A stretch of DNA of 64,000 nucleotides from Desulfomonilia bacterium. GTDB taxonomy: Bacteria; Desulfobacterota; Desulfomonilia; UBA1062. The notes beneath the pieces are model-generated. The model saw nothing but the letters and a program-made list of their open reading frames with translations. It searched no databases and had not been told where the DNA came from. The stretch covers positions 27,973 to 91,972 of the forward strand of contig JBEKDT010000019.1 of the NCBI GenBank assembly GCA_050014195.1, read 5' to 3'. Position 1 is the stretch's first letter; the number at the start of each line of letters is the position of its first letter. This document shows, one piece after another, positions 3,523 to 61,944 of this stretch. The translations under genes were made by a program, and so were the position numbers.

Positions 3523-4089
3523 ATGAAGATCATTGCATTCAACGGAAGTCCAAGGAAAGACGGCAACACCACCACGTTGATAGGCTATCTCTTACGGGAG
3601 ATCGAGAAAGAGGGCATTGAAACGGAGCTCGTTCAGCTCTCGGCAAAGGCGATTCACGGGTGCATTGCCTGCTACAAGTGTTTCGAGAATAAGGACAGGC
3701 GGTGCGCCGTTAAGAACGATGCGGCGAACGAGTATATCGAAAAGATGACGACTGCTCAGGGTATCGTTTTGGGATCTCCTTCCTATTTTCAGGATGTAAC
3801 AGCGGAGATGAAGTCCTTGATCGACCGGGCGGGCTTCGTCGGATTGGCAAATGGGAGGATGTACAAGAACAAAGTTGGGGCTTCTCTATCCTGTTTTCGT
3901 CGCACCGGAGGGATGCATACCATCGAAACCATGAACCACTTCTTCTTTAGCAACGAGCTTATCATCGCCGGCCGGGCAATGAGCGTTGCCAGAGAAAAGG
4001 GAGAGGTGGCAAAAGATGAGGAAGGCGTCCAGATGGCGCAGATCCTGGGACAAAAGATCGCTTGGATGGTGAAGAAGCTCTACGGCTGA
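3523..4089 (+). CDS. iron-sulfur flavoprotein (flavodoxin family, NADPH-dependent FMN reductase-like)
   Basis: FNGSPRKDGNT; CxxCxxCx7C (CIACYKCFENKDRRC); GSPSY. Confidence 0.9.
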   Translation: MKIIAFNGSPRKDGNTTTLIGYLLREIEKEGIETELVQLSAKAIHGCIACYKCFENKDRRCAVKNDAANEYIEKMTTAQGIVLGSPSYFQDVTAEMKSLIDRAGFVGLANGRMYKNKVGASLSCFRRTGGMHTIETMNHFFFSNELIIAGRAMSVAREKGEVAKDEEGVQMAQILGQKIAWMVKKLYG

Positions 4090-4260
4090 AACCGGCTTTG
4101 GGAAGAGGCACCGTGAGGGCTCGCTGCTTCGGTGGAGAACCCCGAATGCCGGATTGATTCGATTGGGCAAAGCTGGTCTGTTCTCTCCGGCGCAGGTGAT
4201 GCCGACCTTTGGATATGGAAATAATAATTGCGGCTCAATTACTATTGTATATCAGATAAG

Positions 4261-4314
4261 AAGATCATCAGTTTCTAGGCATTTCAAAACTAGAAAGTTA
4301 TCGCAGTTATCAAC
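4261..4314 (-). repeat. cassette-boundary repeat, copy E1 (5' half plus core)
   Basis: 41/54 ungapped identity to 5001-5054; begins 50 bp after the SRPBCC stop. Confidence 0.85.
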
Positions 4315-4364
4315 GGCTTAGCCAATATGAATAGTCTGATCAGAAAACTATACCGGGATGGAGA

Positions 4365-4853
4365 TCAATGGTTTTTTTCCATAAAGGCCTTAAGAGAAAG
4401 GGCGGCTTTATGACACATATTTCCAAAAAACCATCTTCCGATTGGCCCTAACAATTTGCTAAGTAGCCTGGGTTCGTAAGCTACGATATAGGTAAATTTA
4501 GTTTTTCCTTGGCCTAACGGTTCCAGCCGGTAATCTTCGCAGAGAGCATTTACAATAGGACGATTGATTGCAGTTAAAAAAAAGGTGAATCGCTTTCCGG
4601 GATCCCAAGCAATAAATTGTTCATACACTGTCATGGGTTTGAGGGTTACTGTTCTAGTAGTACCCACACCAAACGGTTTAGGACTTGTCCATTCTACTTT
4701 GATGATATCTTTGAACCACTTAGGCCAGGCTTCTCCATCTTCAAAAACTTTAAACACCTGCTCTGGAGAAGCATTGATTTCCACCTCATTTACAAATCGG
4801 AGAGGTGCCGATTCCAAAAAACTTAAGTCAACTGAACGACAATTGAATTTCAT
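4365..4853 (-). CDS. SRPBCC (polyketide cyclase/dehydrase-like) family protein
   Basis: INASPEQVF...WPKWF...GVGTTR...E...WDPGKRF pattern; GGAGG RBS. Confidence 0.88.
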   Translation of the reverse strand: MKFNCRSVDLSFLESAPLRFVNEVEINASPEQVFKVFEDGEAWPKWFKDIIKVEWTSPKPFGVGTTRTVTLKPMTVYEQFIAWDPGKRFTFFLTAINRPIVNALCEDYRLEPLGQGKTKFTYIVAYEPRLLSKLLGPIGRWFFGNMCHKAALSLKAFMEKNH

Positions 4854-4935
4854 ACCATCCTCCTATTTCAGTATATTATGAATATAATATTAATAGAATA
4901 TTAAAAAGCAAGATAATGGGGGATTTTTTAAAGAG

Positions 4936-5055
4936 TGTTGATACTGGGTGCCATTTGATACACACAGATATGGACTGCTTTAATGCATAGGTTTCAAACA
5001 CAGATCTTCAGTATTCAGGCATCTCAAAACCGTGATGAAATCGCAGTTATCAACA
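4936..5055 (-). repeat. cassette-boundary repeat, copy E2 (full, long class)
   Basis: GAGTGTTGATA...TATCAACACTC terminal inverted repeat; starts 1 nt after the upstream gene's TGA; homologous to 49695-49806 and 61433-61548. Confidence 0.9.
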
Positions 5056-5056
5056 C

Positions 5057-6787
5057 TCACAAAATCTTTACGCCTTTGAAAGTAAATTCTGGACTTATAG
5101 TCATAGCATCAACCATCTGGAGTTTACCTTCTTTTATCCGGTAGATTCCGAGGATGTAACATGATGAATTCCGCCATCCGAAATAGGCATTCCCTAATTT
5201 AACAATAAAACATTCCTTTCCGTTTGATAAGGGAAAGTACTCAGATCCGTGGGACTCAAGAAAATCAAACTCGTTATAAGATGAATGGAATGATTTACTA
5301 TTAATAAACCTAAGCTGTTCATTGTAATCCTTGTCCACATCAATGTAAGATGTTTTATCAGGTTGCTGTTGATTTATTTTTAAAATGAGCATGCGGTAAT
5401 ACTTGGAGCCATTTGATTCAAATGCCAAGTGGCAAACAATCTCTTTTATGCCCTTGTTCTCAATATCCAGATACTGGTATTGACTTTCTTTCTGAAGGAA
5501 ATTTTCTTTATAATCTCTCTTTACAATAGCCACTACTATATTCTCAACTTTCTCTGCAGGATAAGTCCATTCGGGGTTATTCATGAGAGATGTTGCTATG
5601 GGTGAAAAACCTGCCGAAAAATTCCTTGCAAGGGCATTTGCCTTTTCTTCAAGCACTTTAAATGACGGGTCATATTGATTGACGAGATTACCATGAAATT
5701 GTGTAGAATATGTGACTTCTATTTTGCCAAGACCACTTCTGCCCTTTACATTCTTAAGGCTGAACAGTTCGATGATGGTCTTTGGTTGATCATTTGCTGC
5801 ATTATTGAGGAAATTATCTACAACAGCGATATATGTGCGTCTATCTATATGTACAAAACCGAGTGATGTAGCCCAGCAGATACCCCCTTCATCTTCATAC
5901 TGATCTATAAAAGGGCCTTCTATTTTAACCAGTGATTTGTCACTATTCACATGGAAGAATTGAAAACGGTCGCAGTGCATTGTTCCTGCAGTATTATCAA
6001 GGATAATATCTTTGATGCCATCCTGCTCGACATCTTCGAGATAAAGGTCGGTCCTGGTTGAAGTGTTATTTAAGGTTGCTTCTATATCTGATACTTGCTC
6101 TTGGGTGGGTTTGTAATTCTTGCTGATGTAATCTAATATCGATTCTTTATTTCCATCACCTAAATTGTTCTTAATACTATCCTCAGTAAATCCTAATGAA
6201 GATACAATCAATCTCCCTGGCTCAAATGGAGTTGTTCTGATACGCTCTGCAAGCTTTTTGCGAACCTCCAAACACTCTTGCGTATCCCAATTTTTATACA
6301 ATACAACACGGTCTTCATAGAATTTTTTCAGACGGGATTTCTGATAGGTTTTAATATCTATATGTTTTATTTGTGCCTTACCAGGGTTCTTCGCTGCACG
6401 CTTTTGCATTCTCAACTCTTTCCATTCTGCAAATCTTTGCCATTCTTCCCATCTTGCATCTCTTTGCCTTAGCCATTCACCCTGAGATGCAATGAATTCC
6501 TCCCTTTGATTTTGAGTCATTCCTTTTTGGGCTAATTCAAAGAGCCTATTCATCTCTGAATCTACTTCAACAAGTTCAGGGTCGGAACAGATGGCATTGT
6601 CGACAGGTGTCGTGGCCTTTTGGCAATTTAAACCGGAGACTGCAGTCGTTTCCGTTGTACTTCCTTTGGATATTAGAAATGCAAGAGAGAAGATAGAAAT
6701 CATGAAGGCAAAGAAGACAATTTGAGTATAAAATTTCAGTTTATCGATTTTGACCTTCTGCAACAAGTGCGTCCCCCTCTCAATCAA
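5057..6787 (-). CDS. membrane-anchored protein with LprI/DUF1311 domain
   Basis: N-terminal hydrophobic segment then LNCQKATTPVDNAICSDPEL...SQGEWLRQRD; low GC; start uncertain. Confidence 0.75.
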   Translation of the reverse strand: MIERGTHLLQKVKIDKLKFYTQIVFFAFMISIFSLAFLISKGSTTETTAVSGLNCQKATTPVDNAICSDPELVEVDSEMNRLFELAQKGMTQNQREEFIASQGEWLRQRDARWEEWQRFAEWKELRMQKRAAKNPGKAQIKHIDIKTYQKSRLKKFYEDRVVLYKNWDTQECLEVRKKLAERIRTTPFEPGRLIVSSLGFTEDSIKNNLGDGNKESILDYISKNYKPTQEQVSDIEATLNNTSTRTDLYLEDVEQDGIKDIILDNTAGTMHCDRFQFFHVNSDKSLVKIEGPFIDQYEDEGGICWATSLGFVHIDRRTYIAVVDNFLNNAANDQPKTIIELFSLKNVKGRSGLGKIEVTYSTQFHGNLVNQYDPSFKVLEEKANALARNFSAGFSPIATSLMNNPEWTYPAEKVENIVVAIVKRDYKENFLQKESQYQYLDIENKGIKEIVCHLAFESNGSKYYRMLILKINQQQPDKTSYIDVDKDYNEQLRFINSKSFHSSYNEFDFLESHGSEYFPLSNGKECFIVKLGNAYFGWRNSSCYILGIYRIKEGKLQMVDAMTISPEFTFKGVKIL

Positions 6788-6910
6788 AAAAGATATGATA
6801 CATAATTACCATATTTAGTTAAAACAATGCATCCAGCTTTTGTTGTCCGTGTAAGTCTTGATATAGACCCACTTATGAATATACCACCGTAACTTTTATT
6901 GACCACTGAC

Positions 6911-6972
6911 TGTTGATAACGTGCCATGAGTTACGTTTTGCCCATACTGAATATCTCTTTTGATAATCTCTC
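6911..6972 (-). repeat. cassette-boundary repeat, copy B1 (core plus 3' half, short class)
   Basis: 41/59 ungapped identity between 6911-6969 and 51004-51062. Confidence 0.85.
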
Positions 6973-6992
6973 CCTCCTCAACTCAGTGTGAA

Positions 6993-7013
6993 TGGGGGCA
7001 AAACGGGGGCAAA
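6993..7013. promoter_or_regulatory. putative integrase arm-type sites of a left-hand element (2 x GGGGGCAAA, 11-bp period)
   Basis: tgggggcaaaacgggggcaaa ~60 bp from a tRNA 3'-end copy, same geometry as 14046-14064. Confidence 0.55.
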
Positions 7014-7069
7014 TCTGAGAACAAAAGAAAAAGGCTAACAAGTTAGTATCTGTAAGCCAATGTTATTAT

Positions 7070-7090
7070 TGGCTCCCCGGGTAGGACTCG
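7070..7090 (-). repeat. 21-bp copy of the tRNA-Asn 3' end (att-like)
   Basis: TGGCTCCCCGGGTAGGACTCG identical to 14123-14143. Confidence 0.93.
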
Positions 7091-7260
7091 GTCACTACGG
7101 TCGAGACATCGTGTCTCTCCCTGCGTGACCTCCCCTCGGGTTCCTGCCGCGGCACATCCTGTGCCGCTCTTTCTCCCTATCCGGTCGGCGGAACCCTCGC
7201 TTCGAGTCCTACTGGGAAAACCATAAAAATAAAGGCCCTTGTTTGCACAAGGGCCTTTTT
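7081..7260. repeat. GC-rich structured tRNA-linked repeat unit with terminator
   Basis: GTAGGACTCG(7081)/CGAGTCCTAC(7203-7212) encloses nested hairpins; hairpin aaaggcccttg...caagggccttt at 7231-7260. Confidence 0.7.
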
Positions 7261-7434
7261 AATCTTATGGCTCCCCGGGTAGGACTCGAACCTACAACCT
7301 AGTGGTTAACAGTCACTTTAATTGACTATCACTTAGAATCACAAAAAAGCACATAGATATTGACAAACAGACCATTTGAGCGTATATGTATATCACATTC
7401 GATCATTTTTGAAACCATATTTCCACCGATAAAA

Positions 7435-7454
7435 TGGGGAGAGGATGGGGAGAG
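7435..7454. promoter_or_regulatory. putative integrase arm-type sites (2 x TGGGGAGAG)
   Basis: same motif pair with 11-bp period recurs at 14046-14064 at the other island end. Confidence 0.65.
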
Positions 7455-7477
7455 AATAATATTATTAAGGAGAGTTC

Positions 7478-8701
7478 GTGATGCCCGTGAAATGGATTCA
7501 AACAAATTATCCTGGTGTCCGTTATTACGAACACAAATCAAGAAAACATGGATTGAAGCCAGATCGATATTATGCGATTCGATATCAGAAAGATGGCAAA
7601 AGAAAAGAAGAGGGTCTAGGGTGGGGTAGTGACGGATGGACTGCTCAAAAGGCTTTATTCGAACTAGCAGAGCTGAAAGAGGCATATGTAACTGGCAATG
7701 GTCCAAGCAGACTCTCAGATAGAAGAAAACTTGTTCAAGAGGAGAAAGAAATTAAGGATGAAGCCGAAAAGAAAACCGCGCTTGAACGGATAACATTTGG
7801 AGAGTTTTTCAAGACGACGTACTATCCAACTGCTCAAACAAGCAAAAAGATAACGAGCTATGAGAAAGAGGACACATTATATAGGATCTGGATCGAACCG
7901 ATCATCGGAGAGAAACCCTTTAAACAGATTACCCAGATTGATATCGAGCGAATAAAGAAAAGACTTCTAGATAAAGATAGAGCCCCAAAGACCATAGAGT
8001 ATGTTTTTGCAGTTATCAGGCAAGTATGGAATATGGCTCGGCGAGAGGGTCATATTGATGTTGACTCACCTACTAAGATAGTCAGGAAACCAAAGAGGGA
8101 TAATCGACGATTGAGGTTTCTAAGCAGAGAAGAAGCATATGATTTACTTGACCATATAAAGACTAGAACTCCCCAACTGTATAATATATCTCTTCTCTCA
8201 TTACATACAGGAATGCGCGCAGGAGAGATATTTCCGCTAACTTGGGGAGATATTGATTTAAATCGAAAGATAATAACTATACGAGATCCTAAGAATACTC
8301 AGAATAGAGCTGCATACATGACATCTGAAGTTGAAAAAATGTTTATAGGTATGGAACGTAAGGGACATGATGATCTTGTTTTTCAAGACAAGCGACATGG
8401 TAACAGAATCAAAGAAGTATCCCATGTGTTCCGTTTGATAATAGATGAACTTGGTTTAAATAAAGATGTGACTGATCCACGCCAGAAAGTTGTATTCCAT
8501 ACTCTAAGACATACCTTTGCTTCGTGGTTAGTAGAAGGTGGGACTGATCTATATATTGTCAAGGAACTCATGGGTCATAGCACACTGAGAATGACAGAAC
8601 GATATTCGCATGTTGGGCAAAATGCCTTGCAAAGTGCGGTTAAAAATCTTGATATGAGTTTAAGCAAACATTCTAAAGCTTATCTCAAGAAGGAGGTTTA
8701 A
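7478..8701 (+). CDS. tyrosine integrase
   Basis: HTGMRAGEI, HTLRH, LMGHS, RYSH catalytic motifs; N-terminal arm-binding-like region. Confidence 0.97.
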   Translation: MMPVKWIQTNYPGVRYYEHKSRKHGLKPDRYYAIRYQKDGKRKEEGLGWGSDGWTAQKALFELAELKEAYVTGNGPSRLSDRRKLVQEEKEIKDEAEKKTALERITFGEFFKTTYYPTAQTSKKITSYEKEDTLYRIWIEPIIGEKPFKQITQIDIERIKKRLLDKDRAPKTIEYVFAVIRQVWNMARREGHIDVDSPTKIVRKPKRDNRRLRFLSREEAYDLLDHIKTRTPQLYNISLLSLHTGMRAGEIFPLTWGDIDLNRKIITIRDPKNTQNRAAYMTSEVEKMFIGMERKGHDDLVFQDKRHGNRIKEVSHVFRLIIDELGLNKDVTDPRQKVVFHTLRHTFASWLVEGGTDLYIVKELMGHSTLRMTERYSHVGQNALQSAVKNLDMSLSKHSKAYLKKEV

Positions 8702-9007
8702 CAAGACGAACCTGAATTGATATCCATGCTACAAAGTCATAAAAGCACCTGGCGCTCTATATTCTTTACTGATGAACACTTCTCATATAATACTATATTG
8801 TTAAATATAATTGTACCCCACCATGAAATGATTCATCAACCAAGAGAAGAGCGGTCTGGAATCTAACGCAGTTTTATCATTCACCATGTAATTGATAGTA
8901 TATATTATTTTATGGATGCTATGTGATTGCATTACATATTGTAGCAACAAGCATTTACTGAACTAGGGGGTCGATGACCAAAAAGAAGCTGACTTGGAGG
9001 TTACAAA

Positions 9008-9283
9008 ATGAAAAGAATAGCGATAATTCTATTGACACTCTTAATCTTCGGCTGTGTCTCTTACCCGAATCTTCCTATCCACAAAGGAATGACAAGAGAT
9101 GAAGTCCGAGCTAACTTTGGTCCCACATACTGCATATATACATCCACGATAGGGGACTACCACACAGAAATCTGGACTTATACCAAGCAATATGGTGAGT
9201 TAATGTGGGATGCACCGCCTTGCTCTGGTGTTTATAAAATAATCTTTAAAGATGACGTAGTTTATGGTTGGGAAAATTTCTAG
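9008..9283 (+). CDS. small lipoprotein (SmpA/OmlA-like)
   Basis: signal peptide with IFGC lipobox; GMTRDEVRANFGP; GGAGG RBS. Confidence 0.7.
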   Translation: MKRIAIILLTLLIFGCVSYPNLPIHKGMTRDEVRANFGPTYCIYTSTIGDYHTEIWTYTKQYGELMWDAPPCSGVYKIIFKDDVVYGWENF

Positions 9284-9763
9284 GAGGACTCATGAACATC
9301 GGAGATTGTATCAAATGTAAAAAAAATTTCTTATGACCGGAGGTTCCCTGCAAGGCAAAAAGACCTTCACTCTCGGCAAGACTTACGATCATTGAGAAGC
9401 TTTGGATTTAAAAAAGTCATTACTTTTCCGATTTTGTTTAACAATATATTAACACGTAGAATGGCTCCCTGCCGCGCACCATGCCCATGTTTAACAAAGT
9501 CCTGTAGTAAATGACCCCCATCCCTCTCCGCATGTTTTTTACTTACCATCCCCGTTAGGTCAACTACAATTCAACATATTGCTAGATATGCCTTCTCCTT
9601 ACAGTTTTCGTTTATTCAGTTACATGGCATGCTCTGCTCCCTAGTAAGTTGAACGAAGAAATTAAGTATCTTTTGAGAATTATAGATACCAAACTATATT
9701 TTATTTCAATGATTTAAATTGACATCAACCCCCCGCTTAAGGTAATTTAAAAAAAATTAAAAA

Positions 9764-10021
9764 ATGAAAGGAGCCCTCTATATGAGGAGACCAACACCGC
9801 CTCAGTCAGAGATAGAATACATTCAAGTAAAAAAAGCATTCTGCTACTTAAGGGACATTGCCGAAGTGTCTCTGGACGTAATTGGGAAGCACTGTAACCG
9901 TCATCCAGGATCTATCTTGCAATATAGAAGTAGAACCCGAATAACCCCACCAGCTATCCGATTGAAGTTGATCGAGTTGGCGAAAAATCATGGATATGAC
10001 CCAACAAAAATGATCGAGTAA
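9764..10021 (+). CDS. small HTH-like (Cro-type) protein
   Basis: 85-aa ORF upstream of Xis-like and helicase genes; helix-turn-helix-like segment SLDVIGKHCNRHPGSILQY. Confidence 0.5.
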   Translation: MKGALYMRRPTPPQSEIEYIQVKKAFCYLRDIAEVSLDVIGKHCNRHPGSILQYRSRTRITPPAIRLKLIELAKNHGYDPTKMIE

Positions 10022-10063
10022 CTTTCACAAAAGTAGCAACCCAAATTGATGAAGGAGTAATTT

Positions 10064-10342
10064 ATGAAACAAGGAAGACAACTGCGTCAAAAACCAGATC
10101 TATCTGCGATGAAGAGAAACTGGGAAGCACCATATGTAGTTAGAAGACAGAAGGAGCTAGACAAATTTTCGGGTGGTATTCTCAATGCAAGGACACTTGC
10201 TAACCTCGATTCTAAAGGTTTGGGACCAAAGGGAAGAGTAAAGATAGGCAAGAAAGTAGCTTATCCTACTCTAAGTTTGGTTGCATGGATGGAAGAGAGA
10301 GGAGAAGCATGTGGCACCGATGTATATTTCAGGCAGATATAA
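10064..10342 (+). CDS. excisionase/AlpA-like DNA-binding protein
   Basis: RTLANLDSKGLGP...KIGKKVAY...LVAWME winged-HTH pattern; AAGGAG RBS. Confidence 0.7.
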   Translation: MKQGRQLRQKPDLSAMKRNWEAPYVVRRQKELDKFSGGILNARTLANLDSKGLGPKGRVKIGKKVAYPTLSLVAWMEERGEACGTDVYFRQI

Positions 10343-11378
10343 TGAATATAAAGTCATTTCTTTAGATAAACTCCTTGAAAAGGATTTGAAGAGTGAGCCT
10401 ATCATTGAAGGGGTGCTAGATAGGCGTGAAAGTCTTGAGATATGCGGAAAAGGGGGTGTAGGAAAATCAGTCCTTAGTCTCAATATTGGTCTTTACTTAG
10501 CGTGCCCCCATATATGCAGCTCTCTTTTATCTAATGAAGGACCACCATATTCTCTATTTGGTTTATGGTCTATACCAAAGTCGGTAAAGACCTTGTTTAT
10601 TCAATCTGAAAACTCTTCACGAGCAACAATAGCTAGAGCGGAAAAGATCTTCTCAGGAAACCCTAAATTCAGAGAAGGTGCAGATAAGATATTCATGCCC
10701 ATAGACAATAATGATGAAATAATCATCAGTGGGCCGCTTACAGATTCACAGTTCCAAGATGCAGTAATGAATTTAATAACATCCTGTTCTATAGATGTAG
10801 TTATTATTGATCCTCTGATTTCCTTTCATGATAAGGATGAGAATGACAATGCAAGGATGAGAGAAAGCTTAAATTGCCTTACAGAAATAATGACAAAAAC
10901 AAGAGTGGCGACAATCATCATACATCATGTTGGCAAAAATAACACAAACAATGAGGGCCGTGGCGCATCTTCAATCGGAGATTGGGCACACAATATAATG
11001 CTTGTTGATAATATTTATGTCCATAAAGGAGAGACGGGCATAGCACCAGCTTTACGAGTTACGCATACTAAGTCAAGAAATCATGAACTAACACCTGAAT
11101 TCGCACTCATTAGAGATGAAAACCTTATTTATAGGAGGTGTTCATCAGGTGAGAAAGAAGAATCTCATGAAAAAGAACTCAAAGGAGTTGTGGCTGCCTT
11201 ACAAGCTTTGGGGGGTAAGACAGATACACAGGCCGAGTTAGTAGAATCTGTCGTGAAGATAGTAGGATGTAAGACATCTAAGGCTAAGGAATTAATAACA
11301 GGAGCATCCGTGAAAAAGTTAATCATGCCGGTGCAAGGGGGGAAGACTATTGGATATCGACTATCCGAAAATGTATGA
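10281..11378 (+). CDS. AAA-family ATPase/RepA-like helicase
   Basis: Walker A GKGGVGKS, Walker B VIIDP, DENDN, IIHH..K, GRGASS; start may be 10320. Confidence 0.88.
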   Translation: MHGWKREEKHVAPMYISGRYNEYKVISLDKLLEKDLKSEPIIEGVLDRRESLEICGKGGVGKSVLSLNIGLYLACPHICSSLLSNEGPPYSLFGLWSIPKSVKTLFIQSENSSRATIARAEKIFSGNPKFREGADKIFMPIDNNDEIIISGPLTDSQFQDAVMNLITSCSIDVVIIDPLISFHDKDENDNARMRESLNCLTEIMTKTRVATIIIHHVGKNNTNNEGRGASSIGDWAHNIMLVDNIYVHKGETGIAPALRVTHTKSRNHELTPEFALIRDENLIYRRCSSGEKEESHEKELKGVVAALQALGGKTDTQAELVESVVKIVGCKTSKAKELITGASVKKLIMPVQGGKTIGYRLSENV

Positions 11379-11379
11379 T

Positions 11380-11590
11380 TGGCCACACGGCCACAATGGC
11401 CATAAAGATTATGTGGCCATACATAATTATTTAATATCATGGGCGATATTAACTAATTTTGTAAAGCCACGAGGCCTTTTGCCAAAACCCCCCGTGGCCA
11501 AGCATAACCCATTGATATTAAAGGAAAGCCACAATGTCACATGGCCACTATAAAGGATATTGTCGTGGCCAAAGAAATTGGCCCACGAAA
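11380..11590. other. putative replication origin with GGCCA/GCCAC iteron-like repeats
   Basis: about 10 short repeats in both orientations, AT-rich core, IHF consensus on the minus strand at 11505-11517. Confidence 0.6.
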
Positions 11591-11650
11591 TACCTGTAAA
11601 CTTTATAGCCGAATTTTTTGCAACCAAAGAGATAATTGGGAGATATTAAG

Positions 11651-12058
11651 ATGAAAGACCTTGAAACGAAAAAGAAATTTGTAGAGCTAAGAGCTTCCGG
11701 CCACAGCTATGCAAAGATCTCTACTGAGTTGAAGGTTTCAAAGCCCACCCTCATCAAATGGGGGAAGCAGCTTGAAAAAGACATAGCCGAGTTGAAGGAT
11801 GCCATGATGCAAGATATCCACCTTCAATTTCAAATTTCAAAAGAGGCACGCAAACAGGTATTGTCCTGGCAACTCTTCCTCATACTTGACGCGCTGCGTT
11901 CACGAGATTTGACCAACGTGAAAACAGAGAAGCTCATGGATCAGCTAGTGAAGACCACCAACGCCCTTGACCGGATCGAAACAAAAGAAGGCCCCCCTGA
12001 TCCCTTTGAGGAAATGTTAAAGGATGCAAAGGCTATAGCTCAACAAAGAAAGGGTTAG
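11651..12058 (+). CDS. HTH protein, possibly terminase-small-subunit-like
   Basis: FVELRASGHSYAKISTELKVSKPTLIKW N-terminal HTH followed by helical region. Confidence 0.6.
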   Translation: MKDLETKKKFVELRASGHSYAKISTELKVSKPTLIKWGKQLEKDIAELKDAMMQDIHLQFQISKEARKQVLSWQLFLILDALRSRDLTNVKTEKLMDQLVKTTNALDRIETKEGPPDPFEEMLKDAKAIAQQRKG

Positions 12059-12147
12059 AAAGCAGTGAATATAGGCACATCCTGAGACATGTGTTGGCGG
12101 TATTAATTATAGAAAACGGACAAGTTAAAGTAAATAAAGGAGTAATC

Positions 12148-12504
12148 ATGAAATACACAAAAGAAGATATAAAAAAATATGCAGTGCAGTATATTGAATC
12201 AGATGATCTAACAAGAGAATGGATTGAGAGCTTAAACTTTGATGATGATTCACTCAGAGTTTTTAAATGGGAAGCAGAAAATATTAGAGGGCAAAAGTGT
12301 TACGATTATTTGACAGATGTTTATCAACCAGAAGGAAAACTTATAGAAATAGCCTTCTCAATAAGACAAGAAGTTTGGATGGAGATTGATAATTATAAAC
12401 AATTATCAAAAGATCTTAGAAAGTTTTTTAGGAATCATCATAAGAAGGATCATCCAGTGCTTTCTAATCTGTTAAATAAAGATTGTCTTAAGAAATTAAT
12501 TTAG
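12148..12504 (+). CDS. hypothetical protein
   Basis: AT-rich ORF with AAGGAG RBS before ATG 12148. Confidence 0.55.
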   Translation: MKYTKEDIKKYAVQYIESDDLTREWIESLNFDDDSLRVFKWEAENIRGQKCYDYLTDVYQPEGKLIEIAFSIRQEVWMEIDNYKQLSKDLRKFFRNHHKKDHPVLSNLLNKDCLKKLI

Positions 12505-12572
12505 TTAGTTGTAATAACCAAGATCCGATCATACATAGCAGATTATGTAGCTAAGATTCCTTCGTGTGCTCT

Positions 12573-12634
12573 TAGAGATCTTTTCACAAAACCTTTAGTC
12601 TAGGCTAAGCGTTGGCTATGGTACGAAATCAACA
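12573..12634 (+). repeat. cassette-boundary repeat, degenerate copy B4 (short class)
   Basis: TAGAGATC ... TGGTACGAAATCAACA with the 51-bp spacing seen in B1-B3. Confidence 0.45.
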
Positions 12635-12820
12635 TATAGGGCATCTTATTTCAAACGCCACAGTTTGTCCAAGATCTTCACTATTTACCAACTCGATATC
12701 ACCTCAAGTTATATTAAGACATTTCATTTTGATCTTTACAAAGGTTAATAATTACCTTAATATATAATGCTTAAATTTAATATTATACATCTGGATATAT
12801 CATCTTCTGGGGGTTTATCT

Positions 12821-13777
12821 ATGAGTACAAGGGGCATCCTTAAGATCATAGGCTCAATTGCGTCTCTTTCCATGATCATGCTCTTAGTCAGCTGTGGTGG
12901 AGGTGGAGGAAACAATTCCACCAGCAACGCTGAGAATCAAGCGGCTGTTGAAGTTTCAGGGCGGATACTTGATAGCAGCAGCATTCCAGTTGAAGGAGCA
13001 ACTGTTACCTTTGCCAGTGTTCCTGTTGTTGTGACGACCGACAATTTGGGTAATTTTTCAGCCAAAGTTGCCCCTGGTGATCACACTATAACGGTCTCGA
13101 AGGACAACATAACGTTCTATCAGCAAGTATATACTGTCAATGAAGGACCGCCAATTTCTCTTGGTGACCTTTCACCAACAACTCCTTATTATCAAAATGG
13201 CGATGGCAGCAGCCCCAAGATTAACAATCTACAGATAGACTTTTCGACCAGTGACTGCATCATCACATGGCAAGTTTCCTCAATCTATGCTGTTGATTAT
13301 TTTACTCTAACAATTCAGGACTCTTCCTCTTTACCTGTAATCCATACCGAATCTCATCTCACAGGTTCTTCATTCACTTACACTTTCGTCATGAATGATG
13401 CTGACCATATTCATCAGGCTTCTCGTAATCTTTACATCGTCCTAACAGCCTATTCTTCCTCTGGACAAACTGTCTCTGAATCTGTCACTGCTTACAATCC
13501 TCCTCCTTCTCAAGTTCAACTTCCTACTATCACTGCTCTCATTTCTGGCTTAGAAATTCAATGGCCTATGGTTTCAGGGGATACCGTTTACTACGAGGTA
13601 GGTGTTTCTCCTACAGATCCTGAATCTGGTACTCTCTATCTTGTAACTAACAATGACATCACCATAGGAAACCTCCCATCAGTCTTAGAATATGTTGCCG
13701 TCCGAGCCTGCGATGCCTTCGGTCCTGGTCCTTGGTCTCCTTTTTCTTCCGACACACCCATTTCTCTCATCCTTTGA
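12821..13777 (+). CDS. lipoprotein with carboxypeptidase-regulatory-like domain and C-terminal FN3-like beta domains
   Basis: LVSCGGGGG lipobox; VSGRILDSSSIPVEGATV...TTDNLGNFS; VAVRACDAFGPGPWS FN3-like end. Confidence 0.75.
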   Translation: MSTRGILKIIGSIASLSMIMLLVSCGGGGGNNSTSNAENQAAVEVSGRILDSSSIPVEGATVTFASVPVVVTTDNLGNFSAKVAPGDHTITVSKDNITFYQQVYTVNEGPPISLGDLSPTTPYYQNGDGSSPKINNLQIDFSTSDCIITWQVSSIYAVDYFTLTIQDSSSLPVIHTESHLTGSSFTYTFVMNDADHIHQASRNLYIVLTAYSSSGQTVSESVTAYNPPPSQVQLPTITALISGLEIQWPMVSGDTVYYEVGVSPTDPESGTLYLVTNNDITIGNLPSVLEYVAVRACDAFGPGPWSPFSSDTPISLIL

Positions 13778-13981
13778 AACTATCCATTGGACCTTGTAGC
13801 ACATTACTTTAGCTTTCATTAGATCCACAAAAGGATAAAGATCATACCATTATCGCTACTCATAGACATGGGTTGAATAGTAGAGATCCCAATATAATGA
13901 AAATTGATATTCTTTGCGCGCGAGGGTAGCTCCCCTAAAAAAGGGGTGGGGGGGGGGTCGTGTTTTAAATCAGATCATTCC

Positions 13982-14025
13982 AACATTGACAATTCAGTCA
14001 CATACTAACATTGACTATTCAGTCA
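13982..14025. repeat. 19-bp direct repeat pair AACATTGACWATTCAGTCA
   Basis: 13982-14000 and 14007-14025, 1 mismatch; each contains TGAC-N6-GTCA. Confidence 0.85.
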
Positions 14026-14122
14026 GCATCATAAAGGTTAAAATGTGGGGAGAGAGTGGGGAGAAAATAGAGATAAACTAAAAAGGGCTTACAGGTGATA
14101 ACCCGTAAACCCTCTTGATATC

Positions 14123-14198
14123 TGGCTCCCCGGGTAGGACTCGAACCTACAACCTAGTGGTTAACAGCCACCCGCTCTGCCGATTGAGCTACCGAGGA
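14123..14198 (-). tRNA. tRNA-Asn (GTT)
   Basis: 76-nt cloverleaf TCCTCGG...CTGTTAA...GGTTCGAGTCC...GCCA with encoded CCA. Confidence 0.98.
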
Positions 14199-25477: not shown

Positions 25478-25722
25478 GGTTCTTGTCTGTGAAGCGTATC
25501 TTTTAGGAAGCTCTAAAGGTATTTTGAGGCAGATTGTTTTCACCACGAAGGACACGAAGAGCACGAAGAAAATCTAATCAATGCAGAACAAACACTCTTG
25601 CATTCATTGAACTGGTAAGCCATTTCAAAAGATTTCTTTCTTCGTGTACTTCGTGCTCTTCGTGGTAAGGTGTCCCTCTGCATGCTCTCCAATGGTCTGG
25701 GTATGCTTTACTGTGATGAACC
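25478..25722. mobile_element. MITE-like element with inverted 9-mer (CACGAAGrr) arrays, copy 1
   Basis: both ~80-90 bp arms match 61614-61944; imperfect ~22-bp terminal inverted repeats. Confidence 0.8.
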
Positions 25723-48269: not shown

Positions 48270-48361
48270 CCATATGAAGTGGACTGATTAACATAGTTAT
48301 CGATTCAAGATGTTCACCTTTCAGCGTTAGAGAGAGCGCTGATTTATCGCAGAGATCTATG
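48270..48361 (-). repeat. cassette-boundary repeat, copy E4
   Basis: aagatgttca...ttatcgcagagatctatg aligns ungapped with E1/E2; tggactg..catag shared with E2; GCATAGATCTCTGCGAT identical to E5. Confidence 0.75.
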
Positions 48362-48410
48362 CTATTGTCTGAGTGAAGTATATTGATCCGCAGACCTGCC
48401 ACTTATTAGT

Positions 48411-48677
48411 TTACGAGGGCCTTAGCAGATCCGAAATCACTTTTCCATTCTTATCCCGAGGGATCTCTGAGACGAACTTTATCTTTCTGGGAGTGTTATA
48501 AGAAACAAGCTTTTTGCAAGCATACTTTTTAACATCATCTCCGATGATGTATGGATCGTCACTGACTACATATGCCTTTATGACCGCGCCCCTCATGAGG
48601 TCAGGCTCACCGATTATGGTGGAATCATGTATACCATCCCTGGAATTGAGGACTTTTACAACCTCGCGGGAATTCAT
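48411..48677 (-). pseudogene. stand-alone AMP-binding enzyme C-terminal domain (probable fragment)
   Basis: IIGEPD.MRG.VIKAYVV...L.SY..PRKI.FV.EIPR...GKV. Confidence 0.65.
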
Positions 48678-48824
48678 GTGAGATCACTTGTATTATGAAA
48701 GGTATCCTTTATATATAAAGCTTATTTCATATCTATTAGGTGTATAAGTAGTGACTTCGCGAGCCTGTTGAACGCATTGAGAACGCCACGCTATCTTAAA
48801 GAACATAAGTATTGAAAAGGAGAT

Positions 48825-49079
48825 ATGATTATGGATAAAAAGATGATCGATTGGAAAAGCGTGGTAATAGGCATCTTACTCGGGGCCGGTGTCATATTGA
48901 TAGCAGCACAAAGTCAGAATGCGCGCGATCCGAGCCCTCAATGGCAAATCGCTGCCGGTAATTCGACATGGGTTATTAACACAGGGACGGGAGATATCTG
49001 GCAATTGATCGGACAGGGAGGTTCAACCGAAGCTTCATCCCAATATATATTACGATATGCAGGTAAGCCTTCGAAATAA
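48825..49079 (+). CDS. small hypothetical exported protein
   Basis: AAGGAG RBS; IDWKS plus hydrophobic segment; INTGTGDIW. Confidence 0.6.
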   Translation: MIMDKKMIDWKSVVIGILLGAGVILIAAQSQNARDPSPQWQIAAGNSTWVINTGTGDIWQLIGQGGSTEASSQYILRYAGKPSK

Positions 49080-49260
49080 GTAAAAAGGATCAATCACGCC
49101 CTGAAAATACGTTGCAGTCTGCCTGCCCACGGTTGTCCAGGTTCGTTCTGTTATCTACGGGTTCAATCTTGGATTCCCGGGCTGCTGAACAAGCCTTGGA
49201 TTTTTGTCTTCGTTCACAAGCCCTTGCTTTTTACGGATATGATAAAGAATGGAGGACGAT

Positions 49261-49584
49261 ATGGCCAAACTAATTAAACTTAAAGTTGATGAAGCAGATA
49301 TATGGATTGAGGCAGATGAAGATGTATTTGAGAAAGGTGTCCGGAAGGTGAGTGCAAGTGATTCCATGTAAAAGGCTACTATATCATTCCAAGAGATCTC
49401 TAATACAATCAAGGCATATTGCACCTCTTTTGTAAAAGCTATAAAAGGCTTTGACAATGAGTTGACTCCCAATGCTCTAAAAGCGGAATTTGGACTGAGA
49501 CTGAGTGGTGGAGGTAATGTCTATGTTGTGAAGACCGCTACAGAGGCAAGCTTAAAGATTACCGCCGAGTGGATAGTGAAATAA
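49261..49584 (+). pseudogene. trypsin-co-occurring domain (Trypco1/CU044_2847-like) gene with internal stop
   Basis: GGAGG RBS; reads ...DSM*KAT...PNALKAEFGLRL...KTATEASLKITAEW; TAA at 49369-49371. Confidence 0.7.
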
Positions 49585-49694
49585 ATGGCATTCTATTGAT
49601 TTGTATTAGCTACAACTTGATCTTACAAATCGAGAACCAATACTAAAACAGGATCTGACAGTGAACCCTTTTGCATATTCACAAAAAGTAGAAA

Positions 49695-49806
49695 GAACGT
49701 GCCACAAGTCACAATCAGAGCTGGCCTAATCTTTTCATAGATTATATTTCAAGATCATCGGTTTTTAGACTCTTAGAAACCATCGATAATATCGCAGGAA
49801 TCAACA
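49695..49806 (-). repeat. cassette-boundary repeat, copy E3 (long class)
   Basis: GTGCCA to ATCAAC distance 106 bp as in E2; shared tgg.ct, catag, agatc, atcgcag..atcaaca. Confidence 0.85.
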
Positions 49807-49831
49807 TTCTTGAGTTTACTTAAGATGAAAT

Positions 49832-49863
49832 AAAAAGCAGGGCCTGAGATTGACCCTGCCTTT
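49832..49863 (-). terminator. intrinsic terminator after PEP-CTERM gene
   Basis: GCAGGG..CCCTGC stem with T-run on the minus strand. Confidence 0.65.
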
Positions 49864-49884
49864 ATATTCTAATAAACTGAATCG

Positions 49885-50553
49885 TTATTTCTTCAGCTTC
49901 TTCCTGAACCCAGTAAGTCCGAGCAGGCCTGATCCGAGGAGCAGTAAAGTGGCGGGTTCGGGAACCGGCGCGGATGAAGTGGCAGAACCGGTTGTAAACT
50001 TTGTTATATCCATGCCATAGCCTTGTTCGGCAAAGGTAAGGCTCGTGATCGGCGTGTCCGAAGTAAAGCCGACGAATTCGGTAGTATTGAACGTCGGTAT
50101 AGCAAGGTTGTAAATGACGCCGTTGAGAGTCACCGTGATTGCCCCCTCTGCATCATCACCGGGACTATAGTAAAAACCTATCCCTGTTACGCCCGCCAAT
50201 GTTGCGGTCACGTAGGATAGATCAGCATTAGGCTGACCAGCTGTAGTTGACTGGCCGGAGAAGAATGCTACTCCGCCCAAGGTATTGGCATAGTAATTGG
50301 CGCCGATGAGGAACGGAATGTTGTTGGTGTTGGCTAAGGTATCAAATGTGACGCCTCCAACGGTGGTAGGGCCGATTGAATAGTTGTTGGGGGGGAGTGG
50401 TAGGACGATGCTATTGAAGTCGTACGTGGTCGGGCCCGAGACAGCGGCGTTGAAGGCTGCCATATTGGTATATTCGATGACGGAGGCGGAAACCGGTGCA
50501 GCGAAGCAGGCAAAAGCTAGAGCGGCAAATGCAAGACAATACTTTATTCTCAT
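49885..50553 (-). CDS. PEP-CTERM sorting domain protein
   Basis: signal peptide; VPEPATLLLLGSGLLGL..FRKKLKK; GAGGAG RBS. Confidence 0.96.
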   Translation of the reverse strand: MRIKYCLAFAALAFACFAAPVSASVIEYTNMAAFNAAVSGPTTYDFNSIVLPLPPNNYSIGPTTVGGVTFDTLANTNNIPFLIGANYYANTLGGVAFFSGQSTTAGQPNADLSYVTATLAGVTGIGFYYSPGDDAEGAITVTLNGVIYNLAIPTFNTTEFVGFTSDTPITSLTFAEQGYGMDITKFTTGSATSSAPVPEPATLLLLGSGLLGLTGFRKKLKK

Positions 50554-50621
50554 GATTAATCTCCTCAATAATTTATTAAACTCATTACAAAACCTTCAGC
50601 AAAGAGTTCAGTTTAAAATAA

Positions 50622-50790
50622 CGCAATTTTTATGCCTACATGCAACAAGCTGAAATTATTTAAATTAATTTTATCTCCCTCTGAAGGGTGTAAATTATTT
50701 CGACAGATCAATTTGATGTATATTCTTTATATGATAGATTTTATTGATAATTATATTAAAGCTCAGCTGTAAATTATTTCGACAGATCAA
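50622..50790 (-). promoter_or_regulatory. sigma54 promoter with two enhancer (TGT-N11-ACA) boxes
   Basis: AGGCAT-N5-TTGC at 50622-50637; 23-bp direct repeat TGTAAATTATTTCGACAGATCAA at 50689 and 50768. Confidence 0.8.
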
Positions 50791-50864
50791 CTTGAATTTA
50801 CATCTTAATATTAATATACTCTTAATATCTAATTGAATTTATTAATTTATATTATGACCTAACA

Positions 50865-50950
50865 AATGAACTACCCCGCCGCAAGCAGCGGGGTATCAAA
50901 AGCTTCTATAAGGAATAGACCTTTCGCAGCAAGCTGCGGGGAATTAACCC
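50865..50950 (+). repeat. small palindromic repeat element (CCCCGC.GCAAGC.GCGGGG family)
   Basis: two hairpins; inverted homolog at 52731-52930. Confidence 0.75.
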
Positions 50951-51003
50951 GGATGAGATTAAAAATATCAACAGCTCAATTTAATTATGTAACACCAGTG
51001 AAC

Positions 51004-51066
51004 TGTTGATCACGTGCCAAACACAACGGGGTAGCCATACTGAATATTTGAAATCATAATCTTCAC
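51004..51066 (-). repeat. cassette-boundary repeat, copy B2 (short class)
   Basis: 41/59 identity to 6911-6969; TGAAGAT-N11-ATATTCA core. Confidence 0.85.
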
Positions 51067-51159
51067 TGTTTGACTTCCTCATCCCGCTTATTATCATATC
51101 GAACATTGCTTTGAATTCCATCTCGAAACATGCTTCCCATATAAAGGCTTCATATCATG

Positions 51160-59931: not shown

Positions 59932-60143
59932 GCAATCCTCCCCTTGAAAACGATCGTTTCCGGATAATAAACAGCGACATCCTTTCCATAAAAGGCTAAC
60001 AGCATGCACGGAAAATGCAAGGACTTTGCAGGGGATCATGCCCGTTCCGTCGCCGGATGCCGGCCTTGGCAATGGATAAGCGGGAAGCTCTTCAGCGAGG
60101 CAGATCTTAGAAGAATCAAGAGGGCTTAATAGCCCGTGGATAT

Positions 60144-60206
60144 GTGAAGATCAACCGACGAAATATTCAAGAGAGCCTTAGTGTCACTCTTGACACGATA
60201 GCTTCA
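60144..60206 (+). repeat. cassette-boundary repeat, copy B3 (short class, degenerate)
   Basis: GTGAAGAT-N11-ATATTCA...TGACACGATA; 29/45 ungapped identity to B1 reverse complement. Confidence 0.65.
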
Positions 60207-60465
60207 GCTTTGACCAAACATAGATGTGATCCCTTTGTGAATCACTGACACTCACTGTTGACTGCATCCTCAAATCAGCTTGGTTTGCCATTATTGGATT
60301 GGGGAGCAGGGTAAACCCACTCTCCCGAGCAGATTAAGCTCATTCTTTAATAAATGAATGTCAGTATATTTGTTGCAATATTTTCAATATCATTGTATAA
60401 TATTCTCCGTTTAATTGAAATTTAATAATTCTGGGTCCGTTAAAAACCATTTAGGGGGGTATATC

Positions 60466-61419
60466 ATGTTTAACAATTGTTTCTACAGCATCACTAGGGC
60501 TCTTGTGACTTTGTTTATTCTCTGTCTTCTTGTTGGCTGTGGCGGTGGAGGTGGCGGAACTACAGCAACAAATACCTCAACTGAATCGGCGAGCTCAATA
60601 ACAGGCATGGGGTGGTACTTCGAAAACAGTGCACTTGATTACTATAACAATGGCTCGACATGCACTTTGAAGGTTTTTTTGTATTACAGCGAATCGATTA
60701 CCACGGATGACATCGAGAGTGTCAGCGTGACTGCGCCCAATGGGAGTAGATGGTCAATTGCATTGTCGAATAGCCCTTTTGGTACCAGTAGCACGGGAAA
60801 ACCTTATATTATTGGTAGTCTTTTATATAGTGATAACCCAAATGCGTTCCCACTTGCGGGCATCTGGACTGTAGAGATCACGCTGAAGGAAGGTAAGACT
60901 TTATCGTTTCAGCGAACTCTCCATGAGCCGGGTAGCACAGATGATGCAACGCACCAATACCTATATACGAAGGAGGACTGGGCACCTTCTACGAATCCGT
61001 CGCAGTACATCGCGGCACTCAGTCGCTTTCCTTCACAGGGCTACACAGTACAATACTCTGCAGACGATGGTGGTAGTATAACGACCACAGGATTCTCTGC
61101 GGTGAGGTCGAGTTTCCTGGCAGCCGAGCCGAGAGCGTACAATATGTATTGCTGGCTTTATGATGCTAATTATACCTACCTCGGTAGAACAAATCCGGAA
61201 TATTCGACGCTGGATCATTCAAGTACAAACCTGATAACCGCAGACGGAGAAATCTTTATCGTGCCAGCGTCCACAATATCATCGGCCGGGTCTGGGTATG
61301 TTGACCTGTCCAAGGTTAAGTACATCAGATTTGTGAACACAGACGGTGCCCAATACGCGCCGTCGTCGTATTCGAGTATAGACTACCGCTCAATCTCGTC
61401 TCTCGTAGCACTGAATTGA
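60466..61419 (+). CDS. hypothetical lipoprotein
   Basis: LVGCGGGGGG lipobox, Ser/Thr-rich beta-type sequence. Confidence 0.8.
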   Translation: MFNNCFYSITRALVTLFILCLLVGCGGGGGGTTATNTSTESASSITGMGWYFENSALDYYNNGSTCTLKVFLYYSESITTDDIESVSVTAPNGSRWSIALSNSPFGTSSTGKPYIIGSLLYSDNPNAFPLAGIWTVEITLKEGKTLSFQRTLHEPGSTDDATHQYLYTKEDWAPSTNPSQYIAALSRFPSQGYTVQYSADDGGSITTTGFSAVRSSFLAAEPRAYNMYCWLYDANYTYLGRTNPEYSTLDHSSTNLITADGEIFIVPASTISSAGSGYVDLSKVKYIRFVNTDGAQYAPSSYSSIDYRSISSLVALN

Positions 61420-61432
61420 AGGGGAACGAAAG

Positions 61433-61548
61433 CATAGATCTCTGCGATTTCTTCTTGGTTTTAGGATGACAGAAAATTGAAGATCTTGGGATTAAACATA
61501 CGAAACTATCCCTTCATATCAGAGCGTGTCCTCTGGCACGATATCAAT
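61433..61548 (+). repeat. cassette-boundary repeat, copy E5 (full, long class)
   Basis: 36/45 ungapped identity to E2 from CTGCGAT to GAAGATCT; ends TGGCACGATATCAAT; 13 bp after stop. Confidence 0.9.
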
Positions 61549-61613
61549 ACTTTTCGCAGATTGATTTTAGGAGAAAATAGGATCAGAGTGAATTATTTTC
61601 CATCAAGAAAAAA

Positions 61614-61944
61614 GGTTCTTCGCTGTGAAGCGTACTTTTTATGAAGCTCTAAAGATATATTGAGGCATATTGTTTTCACCACGAAGGACACGAAGAGCAC
61701 GAAGAAAAGTATATAACAAAAAGCTTAACACCTGTACGAAGCATTCTTTACGTCGAAGCTGATTAGAAGGCCTGTCTTGACACCTGCCAAATTCATTTAG
61801 GATACTATGGACCTCAATGGCACAGCCAATAACCGGTTCGAGAGTTCAAAAGAATTTGATCCTTCGTGTCCTTCGTGCTCTTCGTGGTAAGATATCCCTC
61901 TGCATGCTCATCAATGATCTGGGTATGCTTTGCTGTGATGAAAC
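61614..61944. mobile_element. MITE-like element, copy 2, carrying an internally deleted GxxExxY gene
   Basis: arms match 25478-25722; minus strand gives ELSN/VIGCAIEVH and LAGVKTGLLISFDV fragments. Confidence 0.8.

Follow-up and report, generated by a model that had tools for sequence, protein, structure and literature searches.

A two-cassette array beside tRNA-Asn

We analysed a window of 64,000 nucleotides on contig C19 of a 4.2-Mb genome from a peat-bog bacterium (hereafter G000), and within it an array of two gene cassettes framed by the repeat modules B1, E2 and E1, which a preliminary description had read as half, full and half recombination sites. On the minus strand the order is tRNA-Asn att remnants, TTTGCCCCC repeats, B1, an LprI-domain open reading frame (ORF), E2, an SRPBCC ORF and E1, each part lying where it had been placed (Table 1). 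The array was also said to start about 20 bp from repeats next to a tRNA-Asn att copy; the TTTGCCCCC repeats indeed end 22 nt from the start module, and the nearest tRNA copy is 21 nt long. Beyond E1 lies higher-GC core DNA carrying two flavodoxin-like reductase genes.

E2 has both arms, as described, and spans 5056-4935, with its first base 1 nt past the TGA of the LprI-domain ORF and its ends forming an imperfect inverted repeat (GTGTTGATAACTG ... CAGT-ATCAACAC). Its 5' half recurs in E1 over 53 nt at 77% identity, and the 15-mer GTTGATAACTGCGAT has two exact occurrences in the 64 kb, one in each module. E1 is accordingly a 5' arm plus core only (nhmmer E 4.2e-07 with the profile of the X family defined below, model 5-60). 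The account of B1 as core plus 3' arm was a fair description of its shape; its arm, however, is of another subtype than that of E2, and B1 belongs to a second family, S. Likeness between B1 and E2 is limited to the last ~25-35 nt (..CGT.AC....TGGCAC G and the inverted box) and to the core-like box at the start of B1, and the X profile does not reach B1 at E<=1 (nhmmer). With A standing for a truncated X such as E1, the spacing of the array is S, 1.8 kb, X, 0.6 kb, A.

No DNA homologue of cassette 1 was found among 40 relatives, and a protein search of the genome_contigs collection returned no relative of the LprI-domain protein. Relatives of the SRPBCC protein at 67%, 56%, 38% and 33% identity (loci L098-L101) had no X nearby; the arrangement at locus L097 is that of L043 and was left out as an independent case. 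At least 90% of sampled array words were present in 24 public peat or wetland runs. The array was colinear in contigs of 4 of these 24 runs, one contig of 3198 nt showing 0 differences, and no joint or alternative arrangement appeared in the contigs of the 4 runs; since contigs drop rare variants, colinear contigs say nothing on excision.

Table 1. Features of the array and of related parts of the window (window coordinates).
Feature	Position	Strand	Details
E1, truncated X, end of array	4316-4261	minus	5' box, TGCGATAAC.., hairpin 1, core box AACTGATGATCTT
Cassette 2	4306..4947	minus	holds SRPBCC ORF
SRPBCC ORF	4853..4365	minus	162 aa; Pfam Polyketide_cyc2 E 1.5e-20
E2, full X module	4929..5064	minus	nhmmer E 4.6e-27, model 4-122; covariance model R1 114 bits
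E2 body	TGCGAT(5045)...TGGCAC(4948)	minus	5' box 5056-5046, 3' box 4943-4935
Cassette 1	5046..6919	minus	begins after G6920; start box TTATCAACA, end box GTGTTGATAAC, the inverted repeat of the start
LprI-domain ORF	6787..5057	minus	576 aa; Pfam LprI E 1.1e-4
B1, S start module	6971-6903	minus	core-like box GAGAGATTATC, then ATATTCAGTATGGGCAAAACGTAACTCATGGCACG; S-profile nhmmer E 5.8e-17
TTTGCCCCC(G)TTTTGCCCCC direct repeats	6994..7013	minus	TTGTCCCAC..TGTCCCAC there in the close relative G003
Two copies of tRNA-Asn 3' end	7070-7090 (21 nt), 7268-7316	minus	enclose a 198-nt GC-rich remnant
tRNA-Asn	14123-14198		
Second array	48272..51067 (C19 76244-79039)	minus	S, 1.2 kb, X, 1.3 kb, truncated X
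Third array	60143..61554	plus	S 60143-60212, 1.2-kb cassette, X 61430-61554

Two families of repeat modules

A blastn search with E2 yielded some 43 copies, spread over more than 15 contigs of G000. An nhmmer profile built from 26 full copies gave 98 matches in this genome at E<1, far above chance. The family so defined, X, comprises E2 and E1 and measures ~115-125 nt, with a body of ~98 nt. Its consensus runs from a 5' box (AAAAGTGTAGATTAC) through TGCGAT, hairpin 1, a core box (AAACTGAAGATCTTG) and ~50 nt ending in hairpin 2 and TGGCAC, to a G followed by a 3' box (GTAATCTATAGTTTA) inverse to the 5' box. Like E1, 19 of the 98 matches end right past the core box (model 57-64). One X together with 30 further nt is 97% identical over model 14-144 in two unrelated contexts, on contigs C14 and C19. 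The S family is shorter (~55 nt), reads GTGATGATTATCAAAAGAtATATTCAaTATGGcCAAAgCGTT....ATGGCACG and ends in ..TGGCACG; its profile had 81 matches in G000 at E<0.1, and 40 of these were full-length with E<1e-3.

High copy numbers of X are confined to one subclade of the genus. Covariance model matches numbered 57 in G000, 64 in G003, 51 in G011, 48 in G002 and 39 in G007. G004, which is 71% complete, had 13, nine other members of the genus had 0-9, and X was sporadic in 5 of 13 other genera.

At least seven X copies (e.g. C6:294-373 and C6:7336-7420) carry a ~50-nt extension, TTTTCCATGCCCCTCTTTTGCGATGATTATCAAAATAAATCTATGCTCTGG, after the 3' box, which runs into an S-like end. The extension holds TTGCGA, 18 nt and TATGCT, a sigma-70 promoter-like arrangement facing the next cassette.

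Polar arrays across the genome

When the X and S profile matches of G000 were merged, they fell into 57 clusters, 28 of which hold two or more elements (multi-element clusters). The census counted 44 S and 40 full X; another 25 X were truncated (13 of type 'A', 12 of type 'A+'), and 7 'B' and 7 minor elements made up the rest. Within the multi-element clusters, 85 of 96 elements are co-oriented with their own cluster, and 18 of the 28 contain an S with a co-oriented X or truncated X downstream of it. The proposal of a cassette array whose sites are of start, full and end type thus holds well beyond the flagged locus, the same grammar recurring in these 18 clusters. The window itself holds two further arrays. 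S stands directly after a full X, or within 0.3 kb of it, three times. The first box of S is core-like, so that arrays are bracketed by direct box repeats.

The suggestion that B1 is half of an X did not hold: S is a distinct family, and the clusters of G000 contain 0 cases of an A arm with an S-type arm of like orientation directly behind it.

Judging from our own reading of 40 translations, the genes outside S are diverse and include Hsp33, TypA, NAD synthetase, formate-dehydrogenase-like and ACR3 genes and three tyrosine recombinases; several of them (Hsp33, TypA, NAD synthetase and others) resemble housekeeping genes. The cassettes carry, among others, a glycosyltransferase, a methyltransferase, a thioesterase with an acyl-CoA ligase, CarboxypepD_reg proteins and a 1206-aa PAS hybrid kinase. 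A multi-copy 1.1-kb cassette of the array on C5 was suspected of being an insertion sequence (IS); the translation of its ORF reads as LpxL-type acyltransferase-like and not as a transposase.

Cassettes differ between close relatives while modules are retained

The close relative G003, whose flanks are 95-98% identical to those of G000, keeps both B1/S and E1 at the tRNA-Asn locus, with three unrelated cassettes between them. Similarity breaks on the left after ..TGGCACG| and on the right before |TGCGATAAC, that is, at TGCGAT; from TGCGAT on, E1 is orthologous in the two genomes (85% over 102 nt, flank included). The third array of the window behaves in the same way: over 60183-61554, S and X are kept in G003 around an unrelated cassette of ~1.25 kb, and similarity stops after ..CTCTTG(A/G)CACG| at the left end and resumes with |T(G/T)CGATTTC.. 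at the right. Similarity between relatives had been expected to end at the core of the sites; at these two orthologous loci it ends at the outer module edges instead.

The SRPBCC cassette (window 4298-4943) was found at another locus of G003, on its contig C17, at 92% identity and inverted relative to the adjacent X copies. High identity stops at its two boxes. The head of the unit there is only GTGTGGCACG, its tail A module is much less similar, and a possible 5-bp duplication, ATTAC, surrounds it. These observations establish that it is cassettes, not modules, that differ between close relatives, and support the view that cassettes are exchangeable.

At the Hsp33 locus on C5, G000 carries an 8.3-kb array where the distant genus members G013 and G001 have a gap of ~250-300 nt that holds no S or X. 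S and the end module therefore come in together with the insertion. G013 and G001 are only ~75-79% identical to G000 there, so the insertion point (attB) is unreadable to the base. An empty site made of fused B1 and E1 had also been anticipated; among the matches of a regular-expression search for B-end|A-start junctions in G000 and the compared loci, no such S/A-like junction occurred.

One X of the G003 tRNA-Asn locus is split right past its core box by an IS5/IS1182-like insertion. This element, with DDE_Tnp_1_6 and DUF772 ORFs and ends reading GGGTGTCGAAAAA..., sits right past an X core box in at least three places (L044 5721-7571 in G003, and C4:~219.9k and C8:~11.2k in G000), where the interrupted X is left as separate A-only and B-only halves; the core box of X may be its target.

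Linkage places the discontinuity at the outer edges of X

Among 35 full X copies of G000, copies that differ more in arm A also tend to differ more in arm B (Mantel test of distances, r 0.367, p 0.0005). Linkage across the core (A_l-B_1, r 0.36) is comparable to linkage within arms (r 0.26-0.58), and it fades gradually along the module (A_l-B_3, r 0.22; A_r-B_3, r 0.02). Both outer boxes, in contrast to the arms, are unlinked to every part of the body and to each other (r -0.14 to +0.08, not significant). Furthermore, the 3' box of one site tends to complement the 5' box of the next (mean longest run 4.5 vs 3.9, p 0.03, 25 pairs), whereas complementarity to the 5' box of its own site is not significant (p 0.37). 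Taken together, the breaks against G003 at two loci, the arm linkage, the unlinked boxes and the pairing of neighboring boxes point to both outer edges of the X body, rather than to (GA)AGAT, as the place where continuity is lost.

These results bear directly on the model first put forward for the locus, in which two circles integrated successively by crossover in the central (GA)AGAT core, leaving B1 as attL, E2 as an attP-like site and E1 as attR. Much of the anatomy would suit it: the half/full/half order is borne out, truncation of X falls right past the core box, S opens with a core-like box so that direct box repeats bracket the arrays, and empty loci lack both halves. Because the arms co-vary across the core and the boxes are unlinked, however, a central-core crossover is not supported. 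The S arm is moreover a separate subtype never joined to A, the flanking half-sites stay orthologous while cassettes change, and at least some pairs of A-only and B-only elements are full X copies split by the IS5/IS1182-like insertion. We consider the core-crossover model very improbable.

An integron-like system or homologous recombination between modules

The module grammar, the turnover of cassettes between retained modules and the linkage breaks at module edges are matters of observation. We tentatively propose, at somewhat less than even confidence, that the flagged region exemplifies an integron-like cassette system, specific to this lineage, whose recombinase is not encoded beside the arrays. 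The arrays are polar and open with the S start module (~55 nt, ..TGGCACG), and an X body (~98 nt: TGCGAT, hairpin 1, then the core box, hairpin 2 and TGGCAC) closes each later cassette; the last X is often truncated past the core box. The short inverted-repeat ends that we call the 3' box and the 5' box are carried by the cassettes themselves. S and X would be recombination sites, S resembling attI and X resembling attC, possibly as folded single strands, and a recombinase encoded away from the arrays would exchange, insert and excise cassettes at the module edges.

Breaks at module edges are, however, also expected from homologous recombination between similar modules, which weakens the case for such a system. 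Recombination between modules of ~80% identity would leave the same edge breaks, so that homologous recombination is a strong rival. In its explicit form, X and S would be dispersed structured repeats of the miniature inverted-repeat transposable element (MITE), repetitive extragenic palindrome (REP) or neisserial intergenic mosaic element (NIME) type that act as portable homology, and cassettes would be exchanged with incoming DNA by RecA with no dedicated recombinase. No linked recombinase was found, as this rival predicts, and edge breaks would fall wherever homology starts and ends; the gradual decay of linkage within X, the near-identical X plus 30 nt in two contexts (C14 and C19) and cassette ORFs in both orientations fit it as well. 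Passive repeats would nevertheless not be expected to show 85 of 96 elements co-oriented and a fixed S-first polarity. S provides merely ~17-35 nt of homology at the left swap boundaries, boxes tend to pair across the cassette and not across the repeat, and neither element-only presence/absence nor target duplication was seen at the three loci compared. We regard exchange by RecA as unlikely, though well within reach.

A precedent exists in Neisseria (PMC1797815), where in each NIME unit a 20-bp dRS3 inverted repeat encloses RS elements of 50-150 bp, stacked without genes. As that source presents them, NIME arrays and minimal mobile elements resemble the present arrays in being syntenic intergenic repeat arrays with alternative cassettes by strain, for which a site-specific recombinase and homologous recombination are both debated. 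The arrays described here differ from the units presented there in that single ~100-nt modules alternate with genes, in having a dedicated start module and in belonging to another phylum.

Comparison with canonical integrons

We searched 41 genomes of the family for the integron integrase IntI (TIGR02249, cut-off 265 bits). The best match in G000 reached 82.7 bits. IntI was above the cut-off in 17 of the 41 genomes, and it also scored above it in the X-rich G002, G003, G004 and G007; G008 and G009 have IntI and merely 3 and 1 X matches, respectively. No X was found in the four intI-adjacent loci, those of G002, G003, G007 and G008, either in L059 and L060 with nhmmer (E<=1) or in L059, L060, L093 and L095 with the covariance model (E<=1). 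The intI-adjacent arrays of G007 and G008 have the usual GC-rich attC sites (..AAC..CCACCGGACGGC..GTT), unrelated to X.

Canonical attC sites carry an R' box GTTRRRY with a conserved GTT and an R'' box RYYYAAC, and integrons recombine at G|TT. The 3' boxes of X start with GTT in only 7 of 53 cases, GTA, GAA, GAT, AAG and others being common, and the 5' boxes read wGATnnC, with AAC in the minority. X is not a canonical attC. G000 has canonical GC-rich attC sites as well (..AAC..CCAsCGGACGGC..GTT) at C1:150.6-155.8k, C7:208-213k and C10:180-181k; these came from a looser motif search, a crude perfect-match attC finder having returned no dense array. Their presence means that ordinary integrase-less integron arrays exist alongside the X/S arrays. 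One canonical site adjoins an RsgA-like gene (C1:152124-152651).

[quoted passage not shown] The anatomy is attC-like: X is ~125 nt long and has a bulged base and inverted boxes of 7 nt (AGATAAC ... GTTATCT). The break ..G|TTATC fits the integron G|TT point, four X-rich genomes have IntI, and the bookkeeping between neighboring boxes tends to follow that of integrons. Yet G000 has 57 covariance model matches to X and no IntI, GTT is rare at the start of the 3' box, the four intI-adjacent loci hold 0 X and unrelated GC-rich attC sites, G008 and G009 have IntI and hardly any X, and the 5' box shows no linkage with the X body. This makes the atypical-attC reading improbable.

Set against CALINs (PMC4889954), the X/S arrays share polar co-oriented organisation, repeat-closed cassettes, diverse accessory genes, a distinct entry module and a break after the G preceding TTATC, and their cassette starts tend to complement a box near the cassette end. 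They differ from CALINs in that X and S show no sequence relationship with the canonical attC sites of the genus and mostly lack GTT, in having ~44 entry modules per genome vs one attI, in that cassettes may be multi-gene and in either orientation, and in that G000 lacks IntI.

Recombinase candidates, folding and other element classes

Besides the ambiguity of the edge breaks, several results weigh against the integron-like system proposed above. No recombinase tied to the arrays was found among IntI, array-adjacent integrases and Y1 transposases. An integrase beside the C7 arrays is found in 0 of 14 other genomes of the genus, and the integrase of the window (7478-8701) belongs to a separate island without a counterpart in G003. 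The two Y1_Tnp genes of G000 (C1:92k and C5:220k) were considered as HUH-type partners, after the model of IS200/IS605 palindrome-associated elements (PATE) or of REP sequences and their transposases (RAYT); unrelated GC-rich hairpins surround the C1 copy, and neither gene has a good X beside it. The folding of X gained no statistical backing, RNAalifold returning 0 pairs and no consensus structure; 84.6% of cells pair in the X hairpins, no better than shuffles, and both sides change in 1 of 13 X pairs, again no better than shuffles. The complementarity of neighboring boxes is merely marginal (p 0.03), an ungapped version of the test giving p 0.16, not significant. Finally, the ORF upstream of a site points the same way as the site in 43 cases and the opposite way in 32, unlike integron cassettes.

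G-T wobbles in X occur in 10 of 19 cases at pair 34-56 and in 6 of 19 at 106-119. They would favor folding of the top strand over the bottom one, so that X possibly acts as a folded single strand.

Near the C7 arrays, two identical copies of a 364-aa tyrosine recombinase (L062 9493-11143, that is C7:69.5-71.1k, and C7:130.7-131.8k) each diverge from an X/S array; the first copy is followed by an IHF/HU-like gene, by our reading of the translation, and then by X. This recombinase was absent from all other members of the genus that were searched. G000 also encodes Xer-like recombinases at C9:15.2-16.0k and C1:399.2-400.0k. A search of G000 for the EVE domain returned nothing.

The pdif sites of Acinetobacter are 28-bp XerC/D sites that alternate in orientation. 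Such alternation is not seen here, with 85 of 96 elements co-oriented. The pdif systems are similar in that small gene modules, framed by short recombination sites, are shuffled between replicons, and differ in that X and S measure ~55-115 nt, are co-oriented and contain no dif-like sequence that we recognised. MITE-type presence/absence of the element alone, or target duplication, was seen at none of the three loci compared. The X/S system lacks the tested defining features of attC sites and CALINs, of pdif modules and of HUH-type elements, and a non-exhaustive literature search, which did not extend to supplements, found no description of X/S modules.

The tRNA-Asn island and other neighbors

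Tandem integration at a tRNA gene offers another comparison, as the array lies beside tRNA-Asn att copies and the integrase gene at 7478-8701 diverges from it. In contrast to such a case, the integrase lies in its own 6.8-kb island, missing in G003, which keeps the array, and S, X and A contain no tRNA-derived sequence. The TTTGCCCCC repeats probably represent arm-type sites of an old tRNA-Asn island and lie outside the array.

The 6.8-kb island has low GC content, occupies window 7268-14171 at tRNA-Asn and is bounded by 49-nt att repeats that are 98% identical. It encodes a tyrosine integrase of 407 aa and has its own arm-type repeats (TGGGGAGAG..) at 7435-7458 and 14046-14080. G003 is without the island (window 7316-14123), its tRNA-Asn abutting the equivalent of window 7316. 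An S copy (E 3.6e-9) lies within the island at 12573-12634 on the plus strand, opposite in orientation to B1. The GC-rich segment next to the island (7090-7268) includes an inverted repeat of the tRNA end, 33 nt long (7201-7233 / 7258-7290), and is 92% conserved in G003; no Rfam family was above threshold there, and an Rfam scan of window 4000-7400 gave chance matches only, at the tRNA-att remnant.

Right past the X of the third array, a ~330-nt repeat at 61614-61942 is missing at that place in G003. It has many copies in G000 (C21, C13, C23, C8, C4, C16, C1, C5, C15 and window ~25478-25720) and looks like a separate MITE family.

Implications

A more specific form of the proposed system would be a distributed integron, in which capture is independent of IntI, a folded X of ~100 nt serves as the junction, dozens of S entry sites stand beside housekeeping-like genes, and cassettes with inverted-repeat ends are cut and joined at both X edges by a still unrecognised recombinase, possibly a host Xer-like one. 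We hold this specific form to be possible but doubtful.

Should S and X prove to be genuine recombination sites, two cassette systems would operate in this clade, one of canonical attC arrays and one of X/S arrays, the latter with ~40 loci, multi-gene cassettes in either orientation and no need of an adjacent integrase. The known ways of building exchangeable bacterial gene pools would thereby be widened, and the short defined sites, with many natural variants in peat metagenomes, would offer a tractable case for the origin of cassette systems. Even if homologous recombination drives the exchange, the arrays would be a clear case outside Neisseria of repeat-framed 'minimal mobile elements'.

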